Shown here: positions 3 through 61,816 of the stretch, piece after piece | Position numbering within the stretch: the first letter of the stretch is position 1 | Layout: each line of letters begins with the position of its first letter | DNA from: Candidatus Spongiisociaceae bacterium | GTDB lineage: Bacteria; Actinomycetota; Acidimicrobiia; Spongiisociales; Spongiisociaceae | DNA length: 64,000 bases | Assembly (NCBI GenBank): GCA_965219685.1 | Contig: CBDCOH010000002.1 | Location: 3,616,001-3,680,000, forward strand | Direction: 5' to 3' | Notes under the pieces: model-generated | The model's database searches: none | What the model was told of the DNA's origin: nothing | What the model saw: the letters and a program-made list of their open reading frames with translations, nothing else | Position numbers and translations under genes: made by a program

Positions 3-1034
3 GTGCCGGCGGATCAACTAGGACCCACCCTGATGCACGAGCACGTCCTCGTCGACCTCACCTGCTACTGGAGCGAGCCCGAGGATCCCGCCGACCGCCA
101 ATTGGCCCGGGTCAAAGTGGCCGAGGTGAGCCGTTACACGATCCTCGGTACGCCGGTGGGGCGCTCCACGATGATGATCCTCGACAACCTGGTGTGCGAC
201 GATGTGCGGATGGCCGCCGAAGAACTCCGGCACTTCGGGAATGCCGGAGGGGGGACCATCGTCGACCTGACCATGGACGGGATCGGCACCGGCCCGGAGC
301 GCCGGCGCGATGTCCTGGGGGTTCGGGAGGTGTCTTCCCGCTCCGGTGTCCACATAGTGGCGGGGACTGGCTACTACGTACACCTGTCCCATCCGGATCA
401 TGTGGCCTCGTCGAGCGTTGCCGAACTCGCCGGCGGGATGGTGACCGAGCTGGAGGAGGGCATCGCGGGTACCGGGGTGAAGGCGGGGATCATCGGGGAG
501 ATCGGCCTTTCGGCTGAGCCGCACCCCGACGAACTCAAGGTCCTTGACGCGGCCGCGGTGGCGTCGCTGGAGACCGGGTTCACGATCAACCTGCACATCG
601 AGCCGGGTTCTCCCACCGGGCATCACGCCGCCCGGCGGCTGCTCGATCGATCCGTCCCGCCCGGGCGTATCGTGGTCGGCCACGTGGACGGTTTCATCGA
701 CAGGGACTACCTGTACACCCTCCTGTCGCTGGGAGTCACGATCGAGTTCGAGGGTTTCCATCTGGACGGATGGCAGGGAGGCCGGTTCGGTTTCGACAGC
801 GCCACCGACGCGGAGCGGATCGACATGATCGCCCGCCTTGTCGAAGAGGGCTACGCAACGCAGATCGTCCTGGCCCAGGACCTGTGTACCAAGCAGATGT
901 ACCGCCGCTACGGCGGTGTGGGCTACGACTTCGTACCCGCCGGGGTGGTGCCCCGCCTGCAAGACGCGGGCGTTCCCCCCTCCGCCATCGACACGATGCT
1001 GATCCACAACCCCGCCAGACTCCTGAGCCGCTGA
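3..1034 (+). CDS. Phosphotriesterase-family (PTER/PHP-like) amidohydrolase #1, probably 5'-truncated by the window edge
   Basis: LGPTLMHEH, GGGTIVDLT, GVKAGIIGEIG, GHVD, LAQDLC and YGGVGY...NPARLL motifs; the usual N-terminal 'TVxG' is missing, so the start is likely upstream of base 1. Confidence 0.9.
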   Translation: MPADQLGPTLMHEHVLVDLTCYWSEPEDPADRQLARVKVAEVSRYTILGTPVGRSTMMILDNLVCDDVRMAAEELRHFGNAGGGTIVDLTMDGIGTGPERRRDVLGVREVSSRSGVHIVAGTGYYVHLSHPDHVASSSVAELAGGMVTELEEGIAGTGVKAGIIGEIGLSAEPHPDELKVLDAAAVASLETGFTINLHIEPGSPTGHHAARRLLDRSVPPGRIVVGHVDGFIDRDYLYTLLSLGVTIEFEGFHLDGWQGGRFGFDSATDAERIDMIARLVEEGYATQIVLAQDLCTKQMYRRYGGVGYDFVPAGVVPRLQDAGVPPSAIDTMLIHNPARLLSR

Positions 1035-1414: not shown

Positions 1415-3406
1415 ATGGCAGACCACCGGAACCGACGATCTACACAGCGCGGACGGGGACGATTCTCCGGCCCGGTCTCCATTCTGGCCCTGCTACTGGC
1501 GCTAGCGCTGGTGGCGGCGGCCTGCGGCGAGGACGCGTCGGTGGACGAGGTGGCCGACGCGCAGGCACAGGCTGCGGCCGCCCAGTCTGAAGCGGCGACG
1601 GCTCAGGCGGAAGCGGAAGCGGCGGCGGCGGCGCTGGCCCAGGCTCAAGCCGACCTGGAAGCAGCCGAGGCTGCGGCCTCCGCAGCCATGGAGGGGGACG
1701 AGGCCTCCCAGTCGGAGTTGGCCGCCGCGCAGGCTGCCCTTGAGGAAGCCGAGCAAAGGGCCGCGGAGGCGGTTGAAGCTTCCGAGGCGGCGCTGGCCGC
1801 CGCGGAGTCCGCTCTCGAAGAGGCCGAGCAGATGCTCGACGAGGCGATGGAGGAAGAGGAGGCGGCGCCTGCCACCACCGAGGCGATGATGGAGGAGGAG
1901 ATGGGGACGGTCACCATCGCGGTGCCCACCGACATCGCCACCTTCGACCCCAACGGTGTGACCGGGGTCCGCGACCTCGACATGTACATCAACCTGTACT
2001 CCGGCCTGACCCGCCACAGTGTGATACCTTCGGCGCTCGCCGAGGGCCACTACGAGTGGGACCGGGTGGAGGTCGATCCCAACCTGGCCGAGTCGATCGA
2101 CATATCCGACGATGGCACCGTCTACACCTTCAAGATCCGGGAAGGTTTGAGCTTCCCGAGCGGGAACCCCTTGACAGCCAAGGACTTCCACTACTCGTGG
2201 GAGCGCGGCCTGGCCCACACCGGCAGCATCACGGACTTCGAACTCGGCGTGATCGAAGTATCCGACATGAACCAGGTGGAGGTGCTCGACGACTACACGC
2301 TGCAGGTGACCCTGCCGCGGCCCAACCCCAGGGTTCTGCGGGTGCTGTCCCTGTCGGTCATGTCGGCCGTCGACTCCGAACTGCTCAAGTCGGAGGCCAC
2401 CGACGACGACCCCTGGGCGGATGAGTACGCCCGGAACAACCCGGCCGGGTACGGCCCGTACGTGCTGGTGGAGCGGGAAGTAGGCACCCGGATGGTGTTC
2501 GAACCCAACCCCGACTGGTGGGATTCCGAATCGGCAGGCCAGTCGAGGATCGTCTACCAGGTGGTTCCGGAGGAGGCCCAGCGGCTGCTGCTGGTCCAGC
2601 AGGGCGCCATCGATCTGGCCTACGCCATGTCGGCCCGGACCGCCCAGCGAGCCGGAGACGACGTGCAGGTCCTCGACTTCCCGACCTTCGCCCAGCGGTA
2701 CCTGGGCCTGAACCAGACCAAGGCGCCGTACAACATCCTGGAGGTCCGCCAGGCGATCGCCTACGCGATCGACTACGAACGGATCATCGCCGAGGTCTAC
2801 TTCGGTAGCTCCCAGCGCCTGCTCTCGCCTTTCCCGACCGGCCATCAAGGCTGGAGGGATTCGTGGCCGTACAGCCCGGACATCGAAAGGGCCAAGGCCC
2901 TGCTGGCCGAGGCCGGCTATCCGGACGGGTTCGACGCCGAGATGCTCGTTTACGGCGACCTGCCCGAGATCGAGGCGTCCACGGTGCTGATCCAGAGTGA
3001 CTTGGAGAAGATCGGGATCAACCTCGGGGCCCGCAGCGTCACCGGAGCGGAGTTCTTCGGGCTGGTGACTCCGGGGACCGACGACTTCGACATGGCGATC
3101 ATCCCGTGCACGCCCTGGCTGCCCGAGGTCTGGTACACGTCGAACCTGCTGCTCCATTCGGGCACGACCTGTTCGATCACCTACAACAATCCCGTGGTGG
3201 ACGCGCTGGTCCAGGACATGAAGGCGGCGGCCACGACCGAGGAAGCCATCCCTCCGGCCCAACGAGCCCAGGAACTGTGGGAGCAGGACGTCGGGTTCAT
3301 CCCGATCGCCCAGCCCAACCAGGTCCAGATCCTGAGCAAGGACCTCAAGGGCTTCCTGCTGACCAACGAGGACGAGTCGGTGTACTTCGCCTATCTCCAT
3401 AAGTGA
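1415..3406 (+). CDS. ABC transporter substrate-binding lipoprotein, family 5 (Dpp/Opp-like), with an Ala/Glu-rich N-terminal stalk
   Basis: ATG 1415 with GGAGGA RBS at 1405-1410; lipobox LVAAACG; PNLAES..SDDG.VYTFKIR, GYGPY and VRQAIAYAID signatures. Confidence 0.9.
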   Translation: MADHRNRRSTQRGRGRFSGPVSILALLLALALVAAACGEDASVDEVADAQAQAAAAQSEAATAQAEAEAAAAALAQAQADLEAAEAAASAAMEGDEASQSELAAAQAALEEAEQRAAEAVEASEAALAAAESALEEAEQMLDEAMEEEEAAPATTEAMMEEEMGTVTIAVPTDIATFDPNGVTGVRDLDMYINLYSGLTRHSVIPSALAEGHYEWDRVEVDPNLAESIDISDDGTVYTFKIREGLSFPSGNPLTAKDFHYSWERGLAHTGSITDFELGVIEVSDMNQVEVLDDYTLQVTLPRPNPRVLRVLSLSVMSAVDSELLKSEATDDDPWADEYARNNPAGYGPYVLVEREVGTRMVFEPNPDWWDSESAGQSRIVYQVVPEEAQRLLLVQQGAIDLAYAMSARTAQRAGDDVQVLDFPTFAQRYLGLNQTKAPYNILEVRQAIAYAIDYERIIAEVYFGSSQRLLSPFPTGHQGWRDSWPYSPDIERAKALLAEAGYPDGFDAEMLVYGDLPEIEASTVLIQSDLEKIGINLGARSVTGAEFFGLVTPGTDDFDMAIIPCTPWLPEVWYTSNLLLHSGTTCSITYNNPVVDALVQDMKAAATTEEAIPPAQRAQELWEQDVGFIPIAQPNQVQILSKDLKGFLLTNEDESVYFAYLHK

Positions 3407-3578: not shown

Positions 3579-4598
3579 ATGAGGAACCTGGGTGTCTTCA
3601 TAGCGAGACGATTGCTGATCGTCATCCCGATGCTGTTCATCGTCAGCATCCTCACCTTCGTGATCCTGCGGGTGATCCCGGCCGATCCCGTGGCTCTGAT
3701 CGTCGGCATAAACCGCACTCCCGAGCGGGTCGAGTTCGTCACCCGCCAGTTGGGTCTGGACAAGCCGATGCCGGAGCAGTTCGTGATCTGGATGGGCGAT
3801 GTCCTGCGGGGCGACCTGGGGACCGCCTGGCACACCGGCCAAGCGGTCACCACCGATCTCGCCGACCGCATACCCGCATCGGTCGAACTTGCCTTCCTGG
3901 CTCTGCTCATCGCGGTGCCGGGCGGCCTCGCCACCGGGGTCATAGCGGCCCGGTACCGGGACCGCTTCGCCGACTTCGGGCTGCGTTTCTCGTCGCTGCT
4001 GGCCATCGCCACACCGGAGTTCCTGTTCGGGATCTTCGCCATCTGGCTGTTCTTCGCCGTGCTGAACTGGGCGCCCGCCCCCCTGGGGAGGATCGAGTTC
4101 GGGATCTCGGCGCCCGAGGCCATCACCGGGCTATACATCGTCGACAGCATCCTGACCCGCAATACCGAGGCGCTGGTCTCCTCGCTCCGCTCGATCGCGT
4201 TACCCGCCATCAGTCTGGGGGTCATCCTCTCGGGAGGCTTCCAACGGTTCACCAGGGCGACGATGGTCGAATCCCTGAGTTCGGATGCGGTGCTCTCGGC
4301 GCGAGGTCACGGCTTGCCCAACCGGCTCGTGTTCTACAAGTACGCGCTGAAGCAAGCCCTGTTGGTGGTCGTACCGGTTTTCGGCATCGTGGTGGCTTAC
4401 GCCATCGGTGGCCTCGTGGCGATCGAGAGGATCTTCTCGTGGCCGGGGGTGGGCCGCTACGCCCTGGAGGCGGCCGGCAAGGCGGATCTGAATGCCGTCC
4501 AGGGTTTCGTGCTCTTCTCGGTGGTGCTCTACGTCGCCCTGAACCTCCTCGTGGACATAGTCCAGGCGATCATCGATCCGAGGATCGAGTACCGATGA
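3579..4598 (+). CDS. Dpp/Opp-type ABC permease (DppB-like)
   Basis: PADPV..LGLDKP..QF..W..GDLG, EAA-like loop ARGHGL, ERIFSWPGVG. Confidence 0.9.
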   Translation: MRNLGVFIARRLLIVIPMLFIVSILTFVILRVIPADPVALIVGINRTPERVEFVTRQLGLDKPMPEQFVIWMGDVLRGDLGTAWHTGQAVTTDLADRIPASVELAFLALLIAVPGGLATGVIAARYRDRFADFGLRFSSLLAIATPEFLFGIFAIWLFFAVLNWAPAPLGRIEFGISAPEAITGLYIVDSILTRNTEALVSSLRSIALPAISLGVILSGGFQRFTRATMVESLSSDAVLSARGHGLPNRLVFYKYALKQALLVVVPVFGIVVAYAIGGLVAIERIFSWPGVGRYALEAAGKADLNAVQGFVLFSVVLYVALNLLVDIVQAIIDPRIEYR

Positions 4599-48747: not shown

Positions 48748-49707
48748 ATGACCGAGCGCACAGCCTTTTTCAATGGCCACTTCATCCCGGAGTCGGAGTT
48801 ACGGCTGGCGCCGTTCGACGTGGGGGTGCGGATCGGGGAGTTCGTGTTCGAGACCGTCCGAAGCTACGGGCTCCGCCCCCACCGCCTACGCGATCATATG
48901 GACCGCCTCTATGCATCGATGAAGGCCTTGGACATCGAGTGCGGCATGTCAGTCGAGGAGATGGAGGAGGTCACCCACGAGTTGATCGAGCGCAACAAGG
49001 CCACCATCGAGCCCTACGACGACCTGATGTGGAACAACGACTGCTCGCGGGGCATCGCCAAACCCTTCGATCCCGGTCCCTACGACTCGTACGAGAGGAC
49101 CGTGTTCATAGTGTTCATCCCGCTGGGACCGTCCCTGGTCGAAGCACTCGACGGGTTGGAGAACGGGGCACCGGTGGTGATCCCGCCCACCAAGAACATC
49201 CCGGCGAGGTACCTGGACCCGAAGATGAAGAACCGCAACCGTATCCACTACGGGCAGGGCATGAGGGAGGCCCGCAAGGTGGATCCCAGAGCCGAGGCCC
49301 TGTTCGTGGACGACGACGGCTACATCACCGAGGGCGGCGGGGCCAACTTCCTGATCGTGAAGGACGGCGCCATCATTTCGCCAGAGGGACGCAACATCCT
49401 GCGGGGGGTCACCCGGGAGGACGTGAGGGACCTTGCGCCGCAACTGGACATGGAGTTCGTGGAGACCAACATCGAGCCTTACGACGTGATGACCGCCGAC
49501 GAGGCCTTCTTCGCCTCCACGCCGTTCTTCGTGATGCCGGTGACCAGCATCGACGGCCGGACCATCGGGACCGGGAGGCCCGGTCCGGTCGTGCATCGCC
49601 TCATCGACGCCTTCGCCCAGCAGGTGGGCGTGCATCCGATCGAACAGGCTCGCAAGATCGCCCAGCCGTACCTGGCCGACCGCCCGAGGGGCTCCAGACC
49701 TTATTAG
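48748..49707 (+). CDS. Class IV PLP aminotransferase (IlvE/DAT-like)
   Basis: FETVR, H.DRL..S, DPKMKN, ITEG.GAN, IL.GVTR, ADEAF, PVTSIDG..IG. Confidence 0.9.
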   Translation: MTERTAFFNGHFIPESELRLAPFDVGVRIGEFVFETVRSYGLRPHRLRDHMDRLYASMKALDIECGMSVEEMEEVTHELIERNKATIEPYDDLMWNNDCSRGIAKPFDPGPYDSYERTVFIVFIPLGPSLVEALDGLENGAPVVIPPTKNIPARYLDPKMKNRNRIHYGQGMREARKVDPRAEALFVDDDGYITEGGGANFLIVKDGAIISPEGRNILRGVTREDVRDLAPQLDMEFVETNIEPYDVMTADEAFFASTPFFVMPVTSIDGRTIGTGRPGPVVHRLIDAFAQQVGVHPIEQARKIAQPYLADRPRGSRPY

Positions 49708-49750
49708 TGGTGAGTGGTGAGTGGTGAGTGGTGAGTGGTGAGTGGTGAGT
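49707..49750 (+). repeat. Heptamer array (GTGGTGA)6, left part, starting at the aminotransferase stop
   Basis: Direct reading; interrupted by the IS. Confidence 0.95.
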
Positions 49751-49802
49751 TGAACCGCCCCGGTTACCCCGGAGACTCGATTAGTTGGGAGATAATGGAG
49801 TC

Positions 49803-51043
<1,241 letters not shown>

Positions 51044-51074
51044 AACACTCTCCGGCAAACCCGGGGCGGTTCGA

Positions 51075-51137
51075 GTGGTGAGTGGTGAGTGGTGAATGGT
51101 GAATGGTGAGTGGTGAATGGTGAATGGTGAATGGTGA
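51075..51137 (+). repeat. Heptamer array (RTGGTGA)9, right part
   Basis: Direct reading; continuation of 49707-49750. Confidence 0.95.
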
Positions 51138-51193
51138 ATCTGGATCAACCTGTAAGGGTACTCGGCGGCTTACATCCAACGGGCAACGGGCAA

Positions 51194-52015: not shown

Positions 52016-52168
52016 AGGGTCCTCCTGTCGCAACTGGGAAGAGGGTACCCATTATGCGATCAGCGTCCTTCGGGAGGAGCCGTTGTCGCCGGGGTCCAGG
52101 AATCGTTCGCAGCAGACTCCGACGCTCCGGAAATCCTGGAGGCGGAAGGGCGCCTACCCTCCCGACAC

Positions 52169-52333
52169 CGCGAAAAGCGCCCGACGGACCTCTGCCGAGG
52201 GCCCTCCCCCAGCCACCACCTCCGTTGGCTCCGGGCGCGTTCCTCTACTCCTGATGAGGGTCGGCCTGGGCGATCTGATCCCTGCCACGGTCCGTCCGGC
52301 GCCGGGAGACGGACCGTCGGTGTTTACGGCTGC
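52169..52333 (-). ncRNA. Putative novel structured RNA, copy A (~165 nt)
   Basis: Homologous to 59456-59622 with covarying stems; own promoter; U-run at the 3' end; matches no RNA family I recognise. Confidence 0.65.
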
Positions 52334-52338
52334 ATATC

Positions 52339-52366
52339 AGTATGCGACATACCTGCGACATGTCAA
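52339..52366 (-). promoter_or_regulatory. Sigma70-type promoter for RNA copy A
   Basis: TTGACA-16 nt-CATACT; overlapped by a TGCGACAT direct repeat. Confidence 0.7.
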
Positions 52367-52533
52367 CCCCCCTCTCTGCGGTGTCGACGAGGCACGGCCA
52401 ATCGGTTGACACCTAGGGGTGGGAGTGCTTGGATAACTTGGAAAATGGGAACGTTCCCAGCCATGGAATGGAGTTCGGTACCGCCTCTCTAGAACGAGTT
52501 CGGAACCCCATTCTCGGAAGAGAAGGAAAGGGT

Positions 52534-53685
52534 ATGAGAAGGGTTGCGACGCATTCTCACGGATCGAGGGTAGGGCGAAGATGGCGAGCGATGGTGATTG
52601 CCGTCGCCTTTGCCATGATCGTCGCGGCTTGCGGGGATGATTCCGCGGAACCTGAAGAGGCTCCTGCAACAACGGCCGCGGCTCCTGCGACAACGGCCGC
52701 GGCTCAGACTACAACAACTGCCGCGCCCACGACGACCGCGGCTCCGGCCACTACTGCCATGGAGGTGAAGGAGTGGCGTGACGGTATTCCTTGCCCGCCC
52801 GAAGGCACGCTCATCGCCTATAGCCCGCTGACACTCGAGTTCGTTTGGTTCGCGGACATCATCACCGCCATGGAGGAGGAAGCGGCCAAGTGCGGCGTCG
52901 ATGTCATCACCGATGACCCCGAAAACGATGCCCAGAATCAGGTAACGAACATCGAGAACATGCTCGAGCGGGGCGTTTCCGCACTGGCGGTAATAACCGT
53001 GGACGAAGTCACGATGGCCCCCGTGGCGGAGCGGGCCCGGGACGACGGCATCATCGTGGTGCGCCATGTCGGCTCGTTGGAGGGATACGACGCCAACGTC
53101 GGGGTTCCCGAGACGGTGTTCGGCGAACTCATCGGAGAGGTCGGCGGCGAGTGGTTGCTCGACGCCAAGCCCGATGCGGCCCCCTACCAGGTGGCGATCC
53201 TCAATGCCGACTCGCTCGGTCCCAATCTGCTCGACCGCAAGCAGGGCCTCAAGGACGGGTTCGATCGCGTCATGGCCGGGGCGGAGTACGAGATAGTGGC
53301 CGACGTCGAGGCGTGGGCGGAGGACACCGCGCTGGACGCTGTAGCTGCGATTCTGGCCGCCAACCCGGACCTCGACGTGATCCTCACGTCGAACGACGTG
53401 GGTGCACTGGGAGGCCTTGCCGCGATCGAGGCGGCAGGCCTCACGCCGAATGTGGACATCGCGATTGTCGGGTCGCTCTTGGAACGGGGGCTCCAGGCGG
53501 TGGCCGACGGAAGGATGCCGGGCGGGATCACCGTCCCGGGTTCCACACACGGGGTGGGCCTGATCGAGGCGTTGTTCCGGTTGCTGGCGGGTGAGGATGG
53601 TGGTTTCAACATGGACATCCCGCCGATCAAGCTGGGCAACGATCCGACCGAGGCCCAGCGGCGCCTGGACGCCGGCGAGTACTAG
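52534..53685 (+). CDS. Sugar ABC substrate-binding lipoprotein (RbsB-like)
   Basis: Lipobox IVAACG, TTAAP linker, Q...IEN....GV, R..G, L.ANPDL..I...ND..ALG. Confidence 0.88.
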   Translation: MRRVATHSHGSRVGRRWRAMVIAVAFAMIVAACGDDSAEPEEAPATTAAAPATTAAAQTTTTAAPTTTAAPATTAMEVKEWRDGIPCPPEGTLIAYSPLTLEFVWFADIITAMEEEAAKCGVDVITDDPENDAQNQVTNIENMLERGVSALAVITVDEVTMAPVAERARDDGIIVVRHVGSLEGYDANVGVPETVFGELIGEVGGEWLLDAKPDAAPYQVAILNADSLGPNLLDRKQGLKDGFDRVMAGAEYEIVADVEAWAEDTALDAVAAILAANPDLDVILTSNDVGALGGLAAIEAAGLTPNVDIAIVGSLLERGLQAVADGRMPGGITVPGSTHGVGLIEALFRLLAGEDGGFNMDIPPIKLGNDPTEAQRRLDAGEY

Positions 53686-53707
53686 CCGCGAAGCGGAATC
53701 GAGTGGT

Positions 53708-53740
53708 GGAGCCGAATGGGGACCGGTCCCGTTCGGCTCC
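53708..53740 (+). terminator. Hairpin after the sugar SBP gene
   Basis: GGAGCCGAATGGG...CCCGTTCGGCTCC. Confidence 0.5.
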
Positions 53741-53770
53741 GGCCGCGCTTCGACCCCGTAACGTAGGAAC

Positions 53771-54811
53771 ATGAAGTCCGAAAGGGAGCCCCGAGGCACT
53801 GAGGTTCTCTCCGAACGGAAGCGGGTGGCCCTACGCAGGTTGGTGACCCAAGTTCCGAGGCCGGGAGGGAAGCGTCGCGGCGACTTCTGGAGCCGGTACG
53901 GCATGCCGGCCGCCTTCCTGCTCATTGTTGTGGCGTTCACCAGCCAGTCCGACGCCTTCCTCACACTCTCCAACAGCCAGAACATCGTCCGGCAGAGCGC
54001 GGTTATCGCCATCGCTGCAATCGGGGTCTCAGCCCTGTTCATAAGCGGTGGCATTGACATAAGCCAAGGGCCGATAATCGCCTTCAGCGGGCTGGCCACC
54101 ATCACCCTGATCAATCTGGGCGTCACCGATTACATAGCGATCCCGATCGCGGTGGCTATGGGAGCGGCCTTCGGGGCGATCAACGCCTTCTTCGCGGAGC
54201 GCGTGAAGATACCGGCCCTCATCGCAACCCTGGGAACCGCGCTCGTCATCCGTGGATCGGCGTTCCTGTGGACGGGCGGGCGGTCGATCGCTCTGGACCG
54301 GGAGGCGGGTGCCGTTCTCAAGTGGCTGGGTCGCGGGCTACTGCTGTTCATTCCTGCGCCGTTCCTGGTGACGTTGCTGGTCGCGGCTGCGGTGGCGACC
54401 GCCTTGAGGTTCACTGTATGGGGGCGCCATACCTATGCGATCGGCGGCAACCAGGAGGCCGCTCGCACGGTCGGCATCAACATAGAGCGACGCCGGACCA
54501 CGGTTTACATCCTCGCCGGGTCCCTCTCCGCTCTGGCGGGCGTCGTCCTGGCGGGCAGGCTTGCCTCGGCGGCCCCCAACGCCGCCACCGGAGCGGAGTT
54601 CGACATCATCACGGCCTCGGTGCTCGGCGGGGTGTCGATCTTCGGAGGTGAAGGAAGGGTGTGGCGAGTCCTGCTGGCCGCCATCCTGCTGGCGTCGCTG
54701 TCCAATGGCCTGGTCCAACTCAACGTGCCGGGGTTCTGGGTGCGGATCGTGACAGGCATCGTCTTTCTGGCCGCTCTCTCCCTCGACCGTCTGCAGAGCA
54801 ACCGCTCATGA
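53771..54811 (+). CDS. Sugar ABC permease (RbsC-like)
   Basis: ISGGIDIS.G, IATLG, GR..YAIGGN.EAA, I.A.VLGG.S..GGEG. Confidence 0.92.
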   Translation: MKSEREPRGTEVLSERKRVALRRLVTQVPRPGGKRRGDFWSRYGMPAAFLLIVVAFTSQSDAFLTLSNSQNIVRQSAVIAIAAIGVSALFISGGIDISQGPIIAFSGLATITLINLGVTDYIAIPIAVAMGAAFGAINAFFAERVKIPALIATLGTALVIRGSAFLWTGGRSIALDREAGAVLKWLGRGLLLFIPAPFLVTLLVAAAVATALRFTVWGRHTYAIGGNQEAARTVGINIERRRTTVYILAGSLSALAGVVLAGRLASAAPNAATGAEFDIITASVLGGVSIFGGEGRVWRVLLAAILLASLSNGLVQLNVPGFWVRIVTGIVFLAALSLDRLQSNRS

Positions 54812-55626
54812 AGCCGAGCCCGGACCAGCCATCGGCCGTGAGCCCCGAGAGCCTTGCGTTCCAAGCCGCGTCCGATACGGCCGAGGTCGAACTGGAGATC
54901 CGGGGGTTGTCCAAGAGCTTCGGGCGGGTCGAAGCGCTGCGGGATGTCACGTTGTCGGCCCGTTCAGGTGAGGTGGTGGGCCTCCTCGGCGACAACGGCG
55001 CCGGTAAGTCGACCCTCGTGAAGTGCCTGGCGGGAACCATCCGACCGGACCGCGGCGAGGTTCTCCTCGACGGCGAGCTGGTCGACATCCAGGATCCGGG
55101 CCATGCTCAGGCACTCGGCATCGAGACGGTCCACCAGGACCTTGCGCTGGTGGAGACACTGGACGTCACCGCCAATCTCTTTCTCAACCGGGAGCTCCGG
55201 AGGCGCGGTCCGATCCTCCGCCGTCTGGGTTGGATGAACGGCCGCGAGATGCGACGGCAAGCCGACGGGCTGCTCGGCACGCTGCGCATCGAGATACCGT
55301 CGATGGATCAACGGGTCGATCTACTCTCCGGCGGGCAGCGCCAGGCGATCGCGGTGGGGAGAGCGGCCGGTTGGGGCCAGAGGGTAGTGTTGCTGGATGA
55401 GCCGGCCGCCGCCCTCGGCGTCGAGCAGACCCAGTTGGTGCTCGACCTGGTGCTCCAACTCCAGCAGCGCAATTTGCTAGTGGTCCTGATCACCCACAAC
55501 ATGGACCACGTAATGGAAGTGTGCACGCGAGCGGTCATCCTGCGTCATGGCCGCGTGGTGGCGGACGTGGGTATCTCCGATGTGACACGAACCGACCTCG
55601 TTCACTTCATTACAGGAGCAGTATGA
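54808..55626 (+). CDS. Sugar ABC ATPase (single domain)
   Basis: GDNGAGKSTL, GIETVHQDLAL, LSGGQRQ, LDEP.AALGV. Confidence 0.92.
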   Translation: MKPSPDQPSAVSPESLAFQAASDTAEVELEIRGLSKSFGRVEALRDVTLSARSGEVVGLLGDNGAGKSTLVKCLAGTIRPDRGEVLLDGELVDIQDPGHAQALGIETVHQDLALVETLDVTANLFLNRELRRRGPILRRLGWMNGREMRRQADGLLGTLRIEIPSMDQRVDLLSGGQRQAIAVGRAAGWGQRVVLLDEPAAALGVEQTQLVLDLVLQLQQRNLLVVLITHNMDHVMEVCTRAVILRHGRVVADVGISDVTRTDLVHFITGAV

Positions 55627-56447
55627 GCAGCCGGACAGCCGAGAAGAGATCGGTCGTCGTAACCGGCGCGGGTCAGGGGATCGGCGCCGCGATCCGTGAC
55701 CGGCTGGCGGCGACCGGGTGGTTCGTGGTGGGGATCGACAACGACCCGGGAGCTTGCGGACTTGCCTCCGAGGCGCTCGGTGCTGCCGGCTCCATGGTCC
55801 ATGGCGACGTGACCGACCGTTCCGTCATCGCCCGGGCCGCACACGTCGCCACCCGGGAACATGCTCTCGGTGGATGGGTGAACAACGCAGCCGTGGCGAT
55901 TCCCGGCACCGCACACGCACCCGACCCGGCCGGGGTGCGCCGCGTGTTCGAGGTCAACCTGGAAGCCGTATTCTGGGGTTGCTCCGAAGCGGTTACCACC
56001 TTCCTGGCCCAGGGCCGGGGAGGTTCGATCGTCAACATCTCGTCGATCCAGGCCCAGACGGCCTTCCCCGGCTGGGCGGCCTACGTCGCGGCGAAGGGCG
56101 GTGTCGAGGGCTTGACCCGCTACATCGCCGTCGAGTACGGACCTGTCGACATACGGTGCAACGCCGTGGCGCCGGGAACCATCCGCACTCCGATGGCGCA
56201 GGACGTAATCGACACGGCACCCGTTCCGGCGGAGATGGAGCGGGCAATGGCGGTCATGCATCCCCTGCTACGGGTGGGCGAGCCTCCTGAAGTCGCACGG
56301 GTAGTGGGTTTCCTGCTGTCGGATGATGCATCGTTCGTCACGGGTCAGATCGTCAACGTCGATGGGGGGGCCACTGCTCGCTGCTACCCGATGCCCTTGG
56401 ACCCCGACGTGGCCGAAGCGCGGAGTCGGCGTGGCGGGTCGGGATGA
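55623..56447 (+). CDS. Short-chain dehydrogenase/reductase
   Basis: TGAGQGIG, VNNA, YVAAKG, NAVAPG, FVTGQ..VDGG; ATGA overlap. Confidence 0.92.
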   Translation: MSSRTAEKRSVVVTGAGQGIGAAIRDRLAATGWFVVGIDNDPGACGLASEALGAAGSMVHGDVTDRSVIARAAHVATREHALGGWVNNAAVAIPGTAHAPDPAGVRRVFEVNLEAVFWGCSEAVTTFLAQGRGGSIVNISSIQAQTAFPGWAAYVAAKGGVEGLTRYIAVEYGPVDIRCNAVAPGTIRTPMAQDVIDTAPVPAEMERAMAVMHPLLRVGEPPEVARVVGFLLSDDASFVTGQIVNVDGGATARCYPMPLDPDVAEARSRRGGSG

Positions 56448-56490
56448 ATACGGATCCGACACCCCTTACCGGGGCTCGAAAGGAGCATCC

Positions 56491-56826
56491 ATGAAGTTTC
56501 TGACCAGCGGCTCGGCAGGTCCGTTCCTCGCCCTCGCCGGAATGGTCGGCAGGGACGAACAAGGCGGTCCGGTCGCCGGACTCCTCCCACAGACCGTCAG
56601 GGCGCTCGAGCGCATCGAGTCGGTTCTGGCCGAGCACGATCTCGATCGGTCCCACGTGATCCGGCTGCGTATCTACCTGGTTGACGTATCGGATTGGCCT
56701 TCGGTCCTGGAAGTGCTCACGGAGTGGTTCGGACCCACACTGCCTGCTGCCACGGTTGTCGGGAATGTGACCCTGGTGGAGCCGTGGATGCTCATCGAGA
56801 TAGATACGGACGCCGTCCGGAACTGA
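56491..56826 (+). CDS. RidA/YjgF-family protein
   Basis: QT..AL..I...L, V....IY, PAAT.V, L......IEI; AAGGAG RBS; lacks the catalytic Arg of RidA proper. Confidence 0.8.
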   Translation: MKFLTSGSAGPFLALAGMVGRDEQGGPVAGLLPQTVRALERIESVLAEHDLDRSHVIRLRIYLVDVSDWPSVLEVLTEWFGPTLPAATVVGNVTLVEPWMLIEIDTDAVRN

Positions 56827-58199
56827 TGTCGCGCCGGGCAAGGATCGGCCTTGTCACACCGAGCTTCAAGCTCTTCGACGAACAGATGCCCGCCTCGTTT
56901 CGTGCCGGACTCGTGGACCGGGCCGAGCGGTTCCGCGCAGAACTCGAGAGCGAGTTCGATGTAGCGTACTGGGGGCTGGTGTCCGACTCCCGCGACGCCA
57001 GGGAGGCTAACGAACACCTCAAAGCCGGCCGGGTAGGAGTCATAGTGGTTGCTCCGACGATGGCGTCTCCGCCGGGCTACACCGAGGAGGCGACCAGCGG
57101 GCTCGACGTGCCGACCGTCATCTGGAACACGGCTTCGACGAGGCGGCTGCCGGCGGGCCTCGATCAGGCGGCGGCGCACGAGGACACGGCTTTTCTCGGG
57201 GCGCTGATGTTCGCCAACACGATGGTCCGCCGCGGAACGACGCCGATCGCGGTCAGCGCCAACCCTGACGACGCCGAACAGGTGCGGCGCGTCATGGAGA
57301 CGGTCAGGGCAGCTGCGGCGGCCGTGGCCCTGCGCAGGGCCAAAGTGATCCGGATAGGGGATCCGATACCCGGCTATACCAATGTGCTGGCAGCCCGGCA
57401 CGAACTCGCCACGCTCGGTGTCACCGAGCACCGCGTCGGCATCGACGAACTCGCCGACGAGTTCGCAGCAGCGGGAGACCGTGGGGCAGGTGAGATCAGC
57501 GACCGAATCGCTGAGCTCGGATGGACCGGCGACGCGGACAGGCGCAGCCGCAGGCTGGCCGCGGCGATCCGACGGCTCGTCGACTCGCTCGACGCGGACT
57601 GCGGTACGGTGAACTGCCACGGACCGTGGTTGAGGTCGTCCCCGGACATCGGGATCGTCGGATGTCTCGGTGTGTCGCTGTGCGCTGCATCGGGCGTGCC
57701 GATGTCGTGCACGGGTGACCTTCCGACCGCGCTCGCGATGAAGCTCGCTCGTGACATCGCCGGAGCGAGCCTCTACTGCGAGATATTCGCATTCGAGAGC
57801 GAGACCCGTCTGGCACTCCTCGCCAACAGCGGCGAGGGCGACCCGGCGACCGGCGACCGCACCCCGCATCTGGAGCCCACTCAGTACTATCCGGGTCTGC
57901 ACGGAAGGGGCACGGCCCTGAGCTTCCCCATTGCAGCGGGTCCAGCGACCCTGGTCTCTCTCACACCCACCGACCGGACCTGGCGTCTCGCCTGCGCGAC
58001 GGGCGAGATCGTCGAGAGCCGGTATCCGGGGCTCGGAGCCCCGAACGGGATGTTCCGTTTCGACGGCGGTGGCCGGGCGGCGATCGACCGATGGCTGACG
58101 GCCGGGCCCGTCCATCACCATGCTCTGGCACCGGGGCGGATTGCCGAGCCACTCGCCGTCGCCGCCCAGGTGCTCGGAGCGGAATACGTGGCGGTCTAG
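56826..58199 (+). CDS. L-fucose/L-arabinose isomerase-family protein
   Basis: RIG.P.PGY, NCH, SCTGD..TA.AM, YCE, NSGEGD, G..HH.AL..G. Confidence 0.7.
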   Translation: MSRRARIGLVTPSFKLFDEQMPASFRAGLVDRAERFRAELESEFDVAYWGLVSDSRDAREANEHLKAGRVGVIVVAPTMASPPGYTEEATSGLDVPTVIWNTASTRRLPAGLDQAAAHEDTAFLGALMFANTMVRRGTTPIAVSANPDDAEQVRRVMETVRAAAAAVALRRAKVIRIGDPIPGYTNVLAARHELATLGVTEHRVGIDELADEFAAAGDRGAGEISDRIAELGWTGDADRRSRRLAAAIRRLVDSLDADCGTVNCHGPWLRSSPDIGIVGCLGVSLCAASGVPMSCTGDLPTALAMKLARDIAGASLYCEIFAFESETRLALLANSGEGDPATGDRTPHLEPTQYYPGLHGRGTALSFPIAAGPATLVSLTPTDRTWRLACATGEIVESRYPGLGAPNGMFRFDGGGRAAIDRWLTAGPVHHHALAPGRIAEPLAVAAQVLGAEYVAV

Positions 58200-58205
58200 A
58201 AACGC

Positions 58206-59231
58206 ATGGACCCTGACAGGCTTCGCCTGCTCGAGTCTCCGGAGATCGTCGTCGGTGTCGACCTCGAGCGTGGCTGCGACATCCACCGCATCTCCCGACC
58301 TTCGGGTCGTAACCTGCTGGCGTCCTACGACTGGTCCAGCCCCGCGCCGGCCGCGGCCTCGTACACGTACGGCTCCAGCCGGCTCGATTGGTTGTCGCAC
58401 TATCGCGGAGGCTGGCAGGAGCTCTTCCCCAATTCGGGACACGACAGCCGGCGAGGTCCGGTTCCCCTGCCTTTCCACGGCGAGGTATCAACCCTGCGTT
58501 GGGAGGTGATGACCGCCGGGGTCACGACCCTCCATGCTCGGACCGGCTCGCGCCTCCCGCTGGTGCTCGACAGATGGATGGAACTGGATGGGGACCGGCC
58601 GACTTTGCGGTTGCGCGAACGCGTGGTCAACGTCGGGAACGAGCCGGCCGACTTCGTCTGGGGGCATCACCCGGCGTTCGCCGCCGTGTCGCCAACGCTG
58701 GTCGACATCCCCACGGCGGCCGCCGTCGTCGACCGCGGAGACATGGGTCCGGCCGCCGATCTCTCGCCCGGAGGTGAGGGGCGCTGGCCGTTGCTCCCCG
58801 TAGCTGACGGGGCGCTCGTGGACGTGAGCCGCATGCCGGGACATCCCACCAGCCGACTCGTCTACCTGCCTTCGATCGGCGAAGGATGGGCTGCGGTTCG
58901 GTGGCCCGACGAGGAGACAGGAATCGCCCTGTCGTGGGATGTCAAGACGTTTCCGCACGTCTGGTTGTGGCAGGAGCGCGGAAGCACCGGTTATCCGTTC
59001 TACGGTCGGGCCGCCCTCGTGGCGGTCGAACCCCAGTCGGCCTGGCCGGCGGACGGGCTGGACGGAGCAGTCGAACGAGGCCAGGCCCACCGGCTGGAAC
59101 CGGGTCAGACCATGACGACCGCCCTCGCCGCGTCCCTTTTCCACGCCGACCGGAGACGCGTTACCGGAGTCGCACCCGACGGCTCGGTGTCGGTCGAACA
59201 GATCGCAGGCCCTCACGCTCCGTCCGCTTAG
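58206..59231 (+). CDS. Aldose 1-epimerase/galactose mutarotase-like protein
   Basis: Y.GGWQELFPN, FHGE, WGHHPAF, FP.VW.WQE, A.EP. Confidence 0.8.
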   Translation: MDPDRLRLLESPEIVVGVDLERGCDIHRISRPSGRNLLASYDWSSPAPAAASYTYGSSRLDWLSHYRGGWQELFPNSGHDSRRGPVPLPFHGEVSTLRWEVMTAGVTTLHARTGSRLPLVLDRWMELDGDRPTLRLRERVVNVGNEPADFVWGHHPAFAAVSPTLVDIPTAAAVVDRGDMGPAADLSPGGEGRWPLLPVADGALVDVSRMPGHPTSRLVYLPSIGEGWAAVRWPDEETGIALSWDVKTFPHVWLWQERGSTGYPFYGRAALVAVEPQSAWPADGLDGAVERGQAHRLEPGQTMTTALAASLFHADRRRVTGVAPDGSVSVEQIAGPHAPSA

Positions 59232-59421
59232 CCTTGGTCCACCGGGCTAGCGTCCCGAGTCTTGGTTTGCTGTGTTACCGGACCGCGGTGGTCCCGCGAT
59301 CGGCATGGCCGACCGCTTCCGGCGCCCGCGCGGAACGGGCCTTTCGTACGAGGGGGTTGTCCGTTGACCGTTGCTGCCGCAACCGGCACGACGGGGAACG
59401 GAGGACGGAGGACGGAAAGGG

Positions 59422-59450
59422 TTGTCCGTGTCACACCCCCGTTGCATACT
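59422..59450 (+). promoter_or_regulatory. Sigma70-type promoter for RNA copy B
   Basis: TTGTCC-17 nt-CATACT, same spacing to the RNA 5' end as in copy A. Confidence 0.65.
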
Positions 59451-59455
59451 GGTAG

Positions 59456-59622
59456 GTAGCTGCAAACACCACCGGTCCGTGTGCGGTACCAATCGGACCG
59501 GGGCAGGGATCCTGTGGGAACCGACCCTTGCGGGGGACGGCGGGACGCGTTCGTGACTGCGGAGGTGGCGGTTGGGGGTGGGCCCGAGGGAGGGATCCGG
59601 CCGGCCGAGGGCGTTTTTCGCG
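59456..59622 (+). ncRNA. Putative novel structured RNA, copy B (~167 nt)
   Basis: Homologue of copy A; no co-directional gene downstream; ends GGGCGUUUUUCGCG. Confidence 0.65.
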
Positions 59623-59770
59623 TTCTCGGGTCCCCGGGGCTAGCTGGTTCCGTGGTCGGTACGTTCGGGGTATTGATGGCGAATCGAGGAGTCAGGACAC
59701 TCGGAGCGTGGCGCGAAACCCCTTCCCCGACACCTCGACGAGAAGGGGGTTGCAGCCGGTGCCGTCGTCG

Positions 59771-61591
59771 CTACGGCGTACGCACGGGGAGGTAGTGGAA
59801 GCCGCGGCCCCTCCGGTTGGGGCGGCTCCCGACCAGGTGCCCGGCATCAGCCAGTGCCGCGAGCACCTGGGCTGCGTGCGACGCGGTGACACCTGCCAGG
59901 TCGGCGGCCTCACTCGACGAGATGCGTCCCCTCACCCGGGCGTATTCCAACATCACCGACTCTCGTCCGGTGCGTGTAGCGAGCCGCTTGAGCTTGCGGG
60001 AAAAGTGGCTACGGAGACCGTTCGACAGCCGGAGCGCAAGTGGGTGACCATCGGGGCTGCCGTGGACTCTTTCCATCATCGGCCTTTCGTTGATTCGAAC
60101 CTCATCGACAAAGCGCTGGAGCATCGGCAGCGTCTCCCGGACAGGTTTCTGGAGAACCGGAGCCGCCGAGTCGGCATCGGCCCAGCCGCGATCGAGCAGG
60201 CGGTATACGAGAAGCAGCAGGTCCAGAATGCCTAGCGAGTGAGGCTCAAGCATGCCGATGAAGCGAAGCCACTCCTGGTCTGGCTCGCCGCCGATCAGTG
60301 TCACCCGTACGTACGGGCCGTCAACCTCTGAGAACACCGGCGGCGGGTGACCCAGAGAGATCATGTCCGCCGTCATGCGATCCACGCCGATCCCCTCTCG
60401 CTCGCCCAACCGCATCGCCGCCATGGCCTCAGCGAGACTTCGATACCGGGGTGCCGCCGGGTGCGTGATGATGTTCGAGGGGGCGACCCCGCCGACGAAG
60501 CCCCCCGGCGACATAACAGTCAGAACGGATCCGACGTGCTCGACGGTGGTCGGTTGCGGGGAGTTCCAGTCGCGGTGGACGACGCCGTTGACCAGCGCCT
60601 CCCTCATGGCTCTGGGCGGGATGGAATCGATCTGATGCACCGCGAAGCCGTCCGGCACATGAACCACAGCGTTCGCCACGTCCATGGCCTGCTCCACCGC
60701 GGCGAACTGCTCCAGCAGCGGGCGGCGCCCCACCTCCTCCCGGCTGTAGGACGGCCCGAACCCTTCGCTGAAGCCACTCGACCAGGGCCGACCGGCACGG
60801 GGCACCCGATGCGTGCTGTCGCCACCGGGGACCTCCCGCCGGACGTAGTCGACTCCGATCTCGGGAGTTCCTACGAAGAGCAGTGATCCTGCGTTGGTCA
60901 GTCGACCGTCTGCGTCGACGAGGTTGAGGCGGCGGATCATGTCCTCACTGGTCGCCATCGCCAGATGGCTGCCGTCACCGCTCCCGGCGCCGTTCTCGCG
61001 CATGTACCGCCGAGCGATCTCGACAGCGGTCTGATCGACGTCGGCCAGAGAATGAGACGACGGCTGTGCCGACCAGTCGAAGCCGCTGCGATGCAGCCTT
61101 CTGTCATTCCACGATGTGAAGTCGAGGTCCACGCAGTTGTCGTCCAAACGCCAGCGATAGCGACCCCTGCAAGGGATCGGCTCCCAAGCCTCGGGCGTGG
61201 ACAGCACCAGCAAGCGGCAGCTATCCAGCACGAACGGTCGGGCAGATACGGTCAGCTTGCGCTCCGTCAGTTGAAATATGCGATGGCGGAGCCACTCCGG
61301 GTCAAGCCCCGTGCCGATCCTTGCACCGTCGTCGGACACGCCCAGGACGATCGCGCCGCCCCCAGGGGTATTGGCCATGCATGCCATTTCGCCTGCGAGG
61401 TATCCGGCAGCCTCCTCGTTCTCGCGGTTTGCCGGCAGGGGCTTGCCTCGCCGATCGCGACGGCCGGGCTCCTCCTTGACATCCACATGGGTCGTTTCGA
61501 CCTCCGCGGGAGCCCGGCCTTGCTGCAAGAGATCAAGCACCAGTTGAATCTGGTCATCAAGTACGGTCGGCGCCCCGAATCCGGTAGACAT
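59771..61591 (-). CDS. AlbA_2 (Schlafen-like) + HATPase_c_4 + HTH protein #2
   Basis: VETTHVDVKEE, ACMANTPGGGAIVLGVSDDG, REALVNGVVHRDW, SPGGF, EREGIGVDRM, GRISS HTH; GAGGG RBS. Confidence 0.85.
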   Translation of the reverse strand: MSTGFGAPTVLDDQIQLVLDLLQQGRAPAEVETTHVDVKEEPGRRDRRGKPLPANRENEEAAGYLAGEMACMANTPGGGAIVLGVSDDGARIGTGLDPEWLRHRIFQLTERKLTVSARPFVLDSCRLLVLSTPEAWEPIPCRGRYRWRLDDNCVDLDFTSWNDRRLHRSGFDWSAQPSSHSLADVDQTAVEIARRYMRENGAGSGDGSHLAMATSEDMIRRLNLVDADGRLTNAGSLLFVGTPEIGVDYVRREVPGGDSTHRVPRAGRPWSSGFSEGFGPSYSREEVGRRPLLEQFAAVEQAMDVANAVVHVPDGFAVHQIDSIPPRAMREALVNGVVHRDWNSPQPTTVEHVGSVLTVMSPGGFVGGVAPSNIITHPAAPRYRSLAEAMAAMRLGEREGIGVDRMTADMISLGHPPPVFSEVDGPYVRVTLIGGEPDQEWLRFIGMLEPHSLGILDLLLLVYRLLDRGWADADSAAPVLQKPVRETLPMLQRFVDEVRINERPMMERVHGSPDGHPLALRLSNGLRSHFSRKLKRLATRTGRESVMLEYARVRGRISSSEAADLAGVTASHAAQVLAALADAGHLVGSRPNRRGRGFHYLPVRTP

Positions 61592-61816
61592 CGTGCCCTC
61601 GCTCCGGTCCTGACAAATGTAGCCAGAAGGTCCCGCCAGAAATGATACCATGTTTTATGACTAAAAAGATAGATTGAGTAGCACGCTGTGGCCATTACTG
61701 AATTATTGACAGCCAATATGTGGCCGGATCGGCAACGCACCCATTGCGGGTTAGTTCGGCGTGGCTACCGGAATAGGATTATGGACAGATGAGCGGACTC
61801 ATGGCGGCGCGGGAGG

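Follow-up and report, generated by a model that had tools for sequence, protein, structure and literature searches.

The closest described relatives of the element reported here are miniature inverted-repeat transposable elements (MITEs) of the IS630/Tc1-mariner type and mobile insertion cassettes, the latter being insertion sequence (IS) ends around a passenger without transposase (e.g. PMC4337579). We analysed a 64,000-nucleotide (nt) stretch of a Candidatus Spongiisociaceae bacterium genome (GCA_965219685.1, contig CBDCOH010000002.1, positions 3,616,001 to 3,680,000 of the forward strand; hereafter the window), in which a preliminary description had noticed two diverged copies, here called A and B, of a structured RNA with promoter-like boxes. 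Like IS630/Tc1-mariner MITEs, the element to which these copies belong has short terminal inverted repeats (TIRs) identical to those of a resident IS of the IS630 family, a TA within CTAG at its ends, no transposase, and many dispersed intergenic copies whose number varies between close relatives. It differs from them in that its inside appears to be an RNA gene and not a deleted transposase gene, and in that this passenger is better conserved than the transposon parts. Our reading, to which we assign a probability of roughly 0.6, is that the copies form an IS630-type MITE family with a complete small transcription unit as cargo.

MITEs that carry promoters have been described elsewhere. The Correia repeats of Neisseria are MITEs with promoters that give rise to small RNAs (sRNAs). 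QMITE1 and QMITE2 of Coxiella burnetii are MITEs with sigma-70-type promoters transcribed into sRNAs (PMC5896051). These repeats resemble the present family in their length of a few hundred base pairs (bp), their copy number of about 50 or more and their sigma-70-type promoters; their sRNAs stem from chance juxtaposition of promoters and inserts (PMC5896051), whereas the present family has the same promoter-RNA-tail unit in every copy. Covarying helices, a loop palindrome and conservation across three genera also set the present family apart from them.

Other likenesses concern the RNA itself. The dimerisation initiation site of human immunodeficiency virus type 1 (HIV-1) exists as several alternative palindromes among subtypes, and this site, OLE, ROOL, GOLLD and the HYER ribozymes share with the present RNA a self-complementary hexamer in a hairpin loop. 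Natural bacterial RNAs that form homo-oligomers by kissing loops and palindromic pairing are in print (PMC12286853; PMC12990946). RNAs of this kind are 255-830 nt long or are viral genomes, while the present RNA would be ~170 nt long and covariation alone points to its dimer. The omega RNAs of TnpB/IscB and the bridge RNA of IS110 are likewise structured RNAs of ~150-200 nt inside a mobile element. The present element differs from theirs in being of the DDE IS630 type with ordinary inverted repeats, with no variable guide segment identified here and no special complementarity to the IS; its host genome has no TnpB-type gene (PF07282 gave 0 matches there and matched 8 control genomes), and a TnpB/omega-RNA system was rejected. 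LhrC and Qrr are paralogous multicopy sRNA families with an own promoter per copy and 2-7 copies at fixed loci; the present family also has several paralogues, each with its own promoter, and differs in having 15 to at least 100 copies at variable loci, and transposon ends.

Two copies in the window and the family they belong to

Pairwise alignment showed that copies A and B are colinear from a -35-like box to a shared GUUUUUCGCG-type tail, and a covariance model (R1), built from 27 copies of the window's own genome at both other loci and these loci, gave exactly two strong matches over the window, so that the colinear homologues named in the preliminary description were recovered by both methods. 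In the model alignment, 113 of 179 aligned positions (63%) are identical between A and B, and a degenerate motif of 22 nt that both contain was found twice in the window and in none of 100 shuffles. The parts of the two copies are as follows.

59249-59261 (+): left TIR of element B, AGCGTCCCGAGTC (13-mer scan with up to 2 mismatches; site C2:3675249)
59262-59421 (+): 5' arm of element B (hidden Markov model, HMM, of the MITE, and sequence reading)
59422-59450 (+): promoter-like boxes of copy B, TTGTCC, a 17-nt spacer with GTGTCACAC, and CATACT (sequence reading)
59454-59627 (+): copy B RNA unit (covariance model, 154.6 bits, E 7.7e-35, model positions 1-172), with parts in the order P1, P2, junction GGGAUC, P3/P4 region, GGGGGNGGGCCC, 3' hairpin, GUUUUUCGCG
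59485-59490 (+): hexamer GGTACC in the P2 apical loop of copy B, self-complementary
59628-59688 (+): 3' arm of element B (MITE HMM alignment, up to profile position 394)
59689-59701 (+): right TIR of element B, GAGTCAGGACACT, with TC after it in place of the expected TA
52339-52366 (-): promoter-like boxes of copy A, TTGACA, a 16-nt spacer and CATACT (promoter scan)
52164-52335 (-): copy A RNA unit (covariance model, 144.1 bits, E 2.2e-32, model positions 1-172)
52298-52303 (-): hexamer GGCGCC in the P2 apical loop of copy A, self-complementary
52367-52443 (-): 5' arm remnant lying 5' of copy A (MITE HMM)

A weak covariance-model match at 4387-4516 (+) of the window (18.1 bits, E 0.0047) may be a badly decayed copy of the family.

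A count of two holds within the window and not for the genome. BLAST with A or B against the window's own genome (G000; a 4.39-Mb chromosome of 65.3% G+C plus a 30-kb contig) gave dozens of matches, and iterated nhmmer converged at 51, of which 48 are full-length (>150 profile positions); the proposal of a multicopy structured RNA with promoter-like boxes of its own thus stands. Carrying the search to relatives, as the preliminary description had recommended, we found the family by BLAST in 13 of 31 genomes and by R1 in 22 of the 29 genomes assigned to the same GTDB family, with more than 1000 matches in total and 15 to at least 96 per carrier genome. By genus, R1 matched 7/7 genomes of g1, 3/3 of g4 and 11/12 of g7, and 0/6 genomes of four other genera. 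The complete 3.0-Mb genome G015 (genus g4) holds 100 full-length matches at E<=1e-8 and the 3.7-Mb genome G038 holds 54. When sampled across the order, 12 of 16 genomes of this GTDB family were positive, and 0 of 124 genomes from 11 sister families were positive under stricter filters.

Public sequence records gave a matching picture. A scan for the exact motif, with one genome per species, found at least 113 stretches, and 41 of the 80 listed plus 7 motif matches on viral contigs were passed to R1. Of these 48, 21 were confirmed, all in Acidimicrobiia, Acidimicrobiaceae, Ca. Spongiisocius or 'bacterium' bins, and 0 of 16 records of other phyla matched; none of the 7 viral-contig stretches matched, and the family was not found in plasmid and phage collections. 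The public records with the family include sponge-associated bins.

Neither copy matched any Rfam 15 family. At the gathering threshold the sole match in the window was an ALIL pseudoknot (50081-50197) in a nearby IS3 element, and when E was relaxed to 10 neither copy was overlapped by anything better than a microRNA model (19.7 bits, E 7.9). In the literature on Spongiisocius, on multicopy small RNAs of Acidimicrobiia and on IS630 MITEs we found no published account, although supplements may hold lists of repeats or sRNAs. This RNA family is absent from Rfam and, by the literature searched, unpublished.

Transposon ends and a better-conserved core

When 12 high-scoring, near-identical copies from G002, a complete genome of the same genus, were aligned with their flanks, similarity began and stopped sharply: the elements start with C-TA-GTGTCCTGAGTC and finish with GAATCAGGACAC-TA-G, a terminal inverted repeat inside CTAG. 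The full element is ~400-450 bp long and has the ends GTGTCC(T/C)GA(G/T)TC, inverted, with TA/CTAG at the flanks. A profile of ten of these copies (L249 and L250, which have no left part, were left out) spans 396 positions, has no transposase inside, and is laid out as follows.

Profile 1-15: left inverted repeat
Profile 16 to ~105: 5' arm
Profile near 114: -35 box
Profile near 137: -10 box
Profile ~148-320: RNA
Profile 321-381: 3' arm
Profile 382-396: right inverted repeat

Terminal inverted repeats and TA flanks on dispersed homologues identify a MITE. The preliminary description had set its RNA against a MITE of promoter-less dispersed repeats with target-site duplications; the copies are indeed dispersed, with inverted repeats and TA flanks, and they are not promoter-less.

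A likely source of the transposase was found in G002. At locus L258 the 12-mer GTGTCCTGATTC stands, free of mismatches, at 892-903 (+) and in inverted form at 2050-2061 (-), bounding a 1170-bp IS with CTAG on both flanks and a 364-amino-acid open reading frame (ORF) that matches DDE_3 and four helix-turn-helix families. The GTGTCCTGATTC motif also stands at both ends of the 12 G002 copies, and the left inverted repeat of element B, which has TA directly 5' of it (59247-59248), matches the TIR of this IS. With the same ends on an IS that encodes a DDE_3 protein, the small elements were most probably mobilised in trans, through cut-and-paste into TA. Likeness between the IS and the small element is confined to ~20 nt per end, and the IS has no space for the RNA unit; the RNA unit is therefore a passenger and not a remnant of the transposase gene. 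These elements are very probably non-autonomous IS630-type transposons, that is, MITEs or, more exactly, mobile insertion cassettes. The IS3 element beside copy A was rejected as the parent, its ends (TGAACCGCCCC) being different.

Matches to DDE_3 numbered 14 in G002 and 1, partial, in G001, with none in G003, G015 or G038. The window's own genome also had 0 matches, while control genomes matched, and its copies therefore look stranded. Inverted repeats with up to 2 mismatches were found at both ends of three G000 copies, including B, and at one end of four more. For IS630 the insertion target is CTAG, of which TA is duplicated. TA stands on either side of the G000 copy at C2:3240627-3241020, copy B shows it on the left with TC on the right, and several G002 copies have TG or CA in place of TA; as CTAG is itself palindromic, target duplication and repeat are not fully distinguishable in these flanks.

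Element B keeps both TIRs and extends from end to end over 59249-59701. Its 5' arm contains an internal duplication of ~55-68 nt in which the -35 region is repeated (GGGGGTTGTCCGT at ~59352 and ~59419), and the MITE HMM splits the element accordingly, with profile 2-119 at 59248-59361 and profile 110-394 at 59417-59701. Within this duplicated region (59350-59431), a stretch rich in short repeats of the GGACGGA type separates the two GGGGGTTGTCCGT sites, and a related copy (C2:3908216-3908687) has (GGACAAC)n in that place. Copy A aligns to profile 47-321 (C2:3668443-3668162; window 52443-52162), and the 13-mer scan with up to 2 mismatches found no TIR near it on either side; only promoter, RNA and the 5' arm remnant are left.

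The placement of the copies agrees with insertion. Using crude gene calls, based on long ORFs with high third-position G+C, we found 44 of the 48 copies outside genes, in intergenic DNA of all kinds; scattered as they are by transposition, the copies give no support to the earlier suggestion of a trans-acting sRNA that regulates catabolic operons. The 300 nt 5' of the -35 region had no other match in the genome for 35/48 copies, meaning that in most copies the repeat starts at the promoter. The genes flanking copy B have orthologues in G007, a genome of the same genus, that are 88-93% identical, and the corresponding intergenic region of G007 also holds a family copy, only 81% identical, which lies ~110 nt farther away from the upstream gene and points the other way. 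As the two copies differ in site and orientation, they are independent insertions into one intergenic region. Many copies in G001, a draft of 270 contigs, lie at contig ends, as expected for a recent burst. Copies often lie 0.5-4 kb apart (G002:C1:2576743-2578213; G038:C1:1896094-1897436; G013:C43), in G002 together with an IS630 copy, and such close spacing would fit local hopping.

Decay has not affected all parts of the element alike. By profile alignment, ~7 G000 copies, among them B, are roughly full-length, 7 have the 3' arm and right end only, and ~28 consist of the core only. When the seven roughly full-length copies are compared in pairs, their mean identity is 0.80 over the promoter, 0.78 over the RNA, 0.54 over the 5' arm, 0.57 over the 3' arm, and 0.35 and 0.60 over the left and right inverted repeats, with gaps counted as differences, which somewhat penalises the arms. 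The core from promoter to GUUUUUCGCG, with which a conserved G-rich tail ends, is also what all three genera share. Core-only copies, compensatory changes in stems (below) and the missing transposase together indicate that transposon parts decay while the transcription unit is kept.

These data bear directly on an alternative in which the family is a plain MITE with no functional RNA, its hairpins and boxes being by-products, its core conservation the outcome of recent spread, gene conversion or subfamily mixing, and any transcript noise. Terminal inverted repeats, TA flanks, a matching IS and copy numbers that range from 15 to at least 100 between related genomes are all what such a MITE would have, and MITEs with sigma-70-type promoters that yield sRNAs are already in print (PMC5896051). 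Neutral decay, however, should be even, whereas the same old copies keep promoter and RNA at 0.78-0.80 and the arms at 0.54-0.57, and ~28 G000 copies retain nothing but promoter and RNA. This difference between arm decay and core retention is the main reason why we rank a selected RNA cargo above a plain MITE. By eye, the 5' and 3' arms look alike as direct repeats; if real, this likeness would fit capture from a tandem array.

Covariation of the helices and the loop hexamer

To avoid dependence on an alignment, we compared the best duplex energy of cognate helix strands in 46 copies with 2000 permutations of partners. No permutation was as good as the cognate pairing for P1 (z -4.3, 0/2000) or P2 (z -6.6, 0/2000), and nine were as good for P3, a nested helix enclosing P4 (z -2.7, 9/2000); four unrelated strand combinations, used as controls, were not significant (z -0.3 to +1.7). 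A brute-force helix search over all column pairs was too noisy in such G-rich sequence and was not used.

The R1 alignment comprises 93 matches out of 96 loci in 20 genomes (45 of the 48 G000 copies and 48 from 19 other genomes). Standard pairs fill 83.6% of its cells, as compared with 77.0 +/- 0.4 after shuffling (0/500) and 30-53% when partners are slid by 1-3 columns. Changes on both sides were found in 30 of 38 pairs (20.3 +/- 1.8 when shuffled) and in 307 cells (125 +/- 16 when shuffled), and paired cells amount to 91% in P1a, 98% in P1b and 92% in P2. Run on this alignment with no structure imposed, RNAalifold recovered P1a, P1b, P2 and P4 and drew the P3 region otherwise; run separately on the two subfamilies (29 and 17 copies) of a MAFFT alignment of 46 copies, it recovered P1, P2 and more. 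The P1 and P2 helices covary, and such two-sided changes are not expected of a plain MITE. Across all pairs of the R1 alignment G-U outnumbers A-C by 345 to 130, an excess that fits selection on the strand read from the promoter.

The stems proposed in the preliminary description fared unevenly. P1, in two parts with an AA(A/G) bulge, and P2 are supported throughout the family. The P3 drawn there, GGG with CCC, is compatible with the alignment and never varies, and it is another nested helix that covaries. The P2 loops, called unrelated, both carry a self-complementary hexamer, GGCGCC in A and GGUACC in B.

Among 85 ungapped sequences the hexamer reads GACGUC in 38, GGUACC in 26, GGCGCC in 10, GGCGUC in 7 and GGUGCC in 3, and it is self-complementary in 84 of the 85, 74 by strict Watson-Crick pairing and 10 via G-U; hexamers shuffled by column gave a mean of 52.7 +/- 2.8 and a maximum of 63 (2000 shuffles). 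Positions 2 and 5 (columns 50 and 53) are GC in 40, AU in 38 and GU in 7 sequences with no other combination, and the central, adjacent positions (columns 51 and 52) are CG in 60, UA in 26, UG in 3 and otherwise in 1. Adjacent bases cannot pair within one molecule, so the constraint must act between two molecules or on a DNA palindrome; the hexamer intermediates are G-U and not A-C, which leans towards RNA. Self-complementarity maintained through three different sequences likewise argues against a plain MITE.

A and B fall into different pairing classes. Predicted duplex energies are -11.7 kcal/mol for A with itself, -8.2 for B with itself and -3.8 for A with B, and nearest-neighbour predictions overall range from -7.5 to -11.7 kcal/mol for homoduplexes and from -0.3 to -3.8 for heteroduplexes between classes. 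A second palindrome, GGGCCC, hardly varies, and its few variants lose self-complementarity, so that the P2 loop hexamer is the only interface supported. We would give even odds that this hexamer forms a kissing-loop homodimer, a proposal to which covariation alone leads.

Positions kept at 95% or more in the consensus are the AA bulge and CACC of P1, GGGA..A of the P2/P3 junction, part of ACGCG, AGG.GG.GG, GGGG, GGCC and UUUUCGCG. A further box, GGAGGUG, is highly conserved and resembles a Shine-Dalgarno sequence, and a small protein might be thought to start after it: copy B has a UUG at a suitable distance, and the spacing from GGGCCC to CGCG is 33 or 39 nt in 38/46 copies. Yet all 45 other copies have at least one frame-breaking indel relative to B, with 183 of 265 indels not multiples of 3, as the preliminary description had held in saying that indels break the reading frame; GGAGGTGG and GGGCCC are 18 nt apart in 20 copies and 19 nt apart in 24, there is no conservation of the putative start codon, and the variable stretch covaries as a stem. 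We give such a protein next to no credence.

The RNA might also be a cis-acting leader, a riboswitch-like switch on read-through from its own promoter with two competing helices on one UUCG-type segment. A co-directional gene for a short-chain dehydrogenase follows ~130 nt 3' of copy A, there is a resemblance between the conserved junction bases and an aptamer, and by eye the middle segment can pair upstream (P3) or downstream (P5, UUCG with a downstream CGGA). P5 was rejected: only 58.9% of its cells are paired, and the alignment-free test gave z +1.4, with no preference for the cognate strand. No riboswitch in Rfam matched, and the downstream gene is convergent in 28/48 copies and co-directional in 20/48. 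Copy B is one of the former, its next gene (59771-61651) lying on the opposite strand, which agrees with the earlier observation that no co-directional gene follows copy B and with the view that the RNA is not a cis riboswitch. The upstream gene is co-directional in 31/48, and the intergenic regions concerned are convergent in 19 cases, co-directional in 21 and divergent in 8, a pattern expected of tolerated insertions and not of a 5' leader. A cis-acting role is therefore very improbable.

Promoter, counter-evidence and the origin of the unit

A and B each have the CATACT -10 box with a TTGACA or TTGTCC -35 box noted previously. In copy A, TTGACA-16-CATACT matches 10 of 12 consensus positions and was found by the scan, where shuffles lead one to expect 0.0. 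Promoter boxes and a motif in the spacer are kept throughout the 48 copies and in two further genera. The spacer motif is the palindrome (G/C)TGTCACA(C/G), present in nearly all copies and all three genera (59429-59437 in B; 52351-52359, minus strand, in A), and it might serve as an operator; in six G000 copies this palindrome is the exact start, and there is no -35 box. At the other end, GCGUUUUUCGC may form a small hairpin and not be a terminator tail. On balance we think it reasonably probable that the RNA is both selected and expressed.

Several results weigh against our reading. Expression is deduced from sequence alone, and the promoter of copy B (TTGTCC-17-CATACT) matches only 8/12, under the scan threshold; against the Escherichia coli-type consensus, 9/12 or better is reached in only 9/48 copies, and 24/48 have no pair of boxes at 4 of 6 each. 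No terminator passes a simple scan at A or B, and the RNA 3' end is a guess. Folded singly, A and B have energies no different from those of dinucleotide shuffles (z -0.13 and -0.14), a measure that is uninformative in sequence of 70% G+C. Neither P4 (z -1.8, 83/2000) nor the 3' hairpin (z -1.1, 271/2000) is significant in the alignment-free test, and in the R1 alignment only 76% of cells are paired in P3, 78% in P4 and 64% in the 3' hairpin. That alignment was fitted to the model structure, and its rows share genomes, so its cells are not independent events; on a plain MAFFT alignment of 46 copies, with the two most divergent (L086 and L088) left out, RNAalifold found only 12 pairs. The excess of G-U may come partly from G-rich composition, and the loop palindrome might instead serve a dimeric protein as its site on DNA. 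A clean empty site was not found, either between G000 and G007 or at a 98%-identical paralogue of one copy's flank, which ends at the junction. Finally, the unit in genus g4 has other boundaries without GTGTCC ends, and no DDE_3 gene was found there.

The weak promoter scores in most copies, the failure to find a terminator by scan at A and B and the shuffle-like folding energies of both would suit a plain MITE. Set beside the uneven decay, the two-sided changes and the loop hexamer, they leave that alternative unlikely.

As the g4 unit has no IS630 ends, IS630 cannot explain all of the spread, and another mode must exist. The repeated unit in g4 begins with an A-run ~45 nt 5' of the -35 box, and on its 3' side come tandem repeats of ~28 nt in varying number; some g7 copies carry IS630-type ends. 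In G015 (L262-L281), these GGGATAGGGGCTTGACCGGTGGGTTCGG-like repeats 3' of the RNA unit number one to four, and further 3' there is a conserved block with a GTCTTT...AAAGAC hairpin. Among type II copies of G000, 8/17 have CGCGAA(A)AC ~20-25 nt 5' of the -35 box, the reverse complement of the 3' GTTTTCGCG, and G015 copies have GAATGAC-A7 in that place; CGCGAA(A)AC may represent an inner inverted repeat or else another type of element end.

These boundaries raise the alternative of an old host small-RNA gene family, a trans-acting regulator of which one member was later caught between IS630 ends and amplified in some genomes. The core unit alone, from promoter to GUUUUUCGCG, is common to all three genera and under purifying selection, flanks differ, with the g4 copies bounded otherwise and free of GTGTCC ends, and most G000 copies have no inverted repeats, as this history would predict. 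Yet g4 also has 100 sharply bounded copies in a 3.0-Mb genome, which is proliferation and not a stable family. No copy was shown to be syntenic between genera, and where synteny was checked (G000 against G007) the copies are independent insertions. No target and no Hfq- or CsrA-type partner is known, CsrA itself being absent: PF02599 was found in 0 of 5 genomes searched and in 3 control genomes, a result that also leaves the earlier idea of a sponge for a GGA-binding, CsrA-type protein unsupported. We consider an origin as a host sRNA family improbable.

Two further functions were tried and rejected. For antisense action on IS630 transposase messenger RNA, a crude test gave a duplex energy of -118.7 against -115.9 +/- 5.2 for shuffles, with the 5' end worse than shuffles. 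For mimicry of a repeat of the CRISPR type, the one clear array in G000 (C2:2874220-2876039) has an unrelated repeat; this CRISPR-like array contains at least 26 repeats. Elsewhere in G000, at C2:3583667-3584045, seven copies of a unit with TTGACGCCGGCGACGTCGTT stand ~63 nt apart, adjoining a partial family match (C2:3584412-3584496).

Within the window, A and B flank in opposite orientations a sugar-utilisation cluster (52429-59231, plus strand) of a periplasmic binding protein, a permease, an ABC ATPase, a short-chain dehydrogenase, an L-arabinose-isomerase-like protein and a DUF4432 protein. Just 3' of element B, 59771-61651 (-) is a 626-amino-acid gene with the domains Schlafen/AlbA_2 and HATPase_c_4; the syntenic region of G007 (L091) does not have it, and there the family copy directly adjoins a gluconolactonase-like gene. 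The IS3-family element near copy A (49707-51138) comprises an HTH_Tnp_1 ORF (49785-50126), an rve ORF (50123-51043) and the ALIL pseudoknot (50081-50197). Its ends, beginning TGAACCGCCCC, are at ~49750 and ~51075, and a heptanucleotide microsatellite surrounds the element, with (GGTGAGT)n to its left and (GGTGAGT/GGTGAAT)n to its right.

A probable selected RNA passenger and its implications

Under the reading of a MITE family with a transcription unit as cargo, each unit would be transcribed from its own promoter into an RNA of ~170 nt. This RNA would fold as a three-way junction in which P1 closes P2 and the P3/P4 arm around invariant junction bases, and it would be selected for a job of its own and not for transposition. 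Two such RNAs may pair through the P2 loop hexamer, within the classes GACGUC, GGUACC, GGCGCC and their G-U variants. Our best guess is a role in trans, with the RNA or its dimer as a structural or protein-binding molecule from which the element or the host profits. What is new here is the uniform promoter-RNA-tail cargo, the covariation across three genera, the loop classes like those of a dimerisation initiation site, and a cargo conserved above its transposon. More speculatively, and this we regard as a long shot, the cargo could be a new class of transposon-borne, self-dimerising RNA, perhaps with higher-order assemblies or a catalytic core, that secures the spread or retention of the element, or else a domesticated RNA-only assembly that the host needs. 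If the RNA secures the element's spread or retention, it would be a cut-and-paste counterpart to omega and bridge RNAs.

MITEs commonly pass for junk, with promoters and hairpins that are of consequence only by accident. The present family counts over 1000 members, spread through three genera of Acidimicrobiia-type bacteria, with one same promoter-plus-RNA unit, and this RNA outlives the surrounding transposon parts, which suggests an RNA that has a job and was spread by a cut-and-paste transposon. Should the unit not be transcribed, the family would be an ordinary, well-characterised MITE family. If it is transcribed and dimeric, it would be a compact natural addition, of ~170 nt, to the few known self-assembling bacterial RNAs and a tractable case of selection on a transposon's RNA passenger, with a covariance model ready to annotate unexplained repeats and assembly breaks in these genomes.

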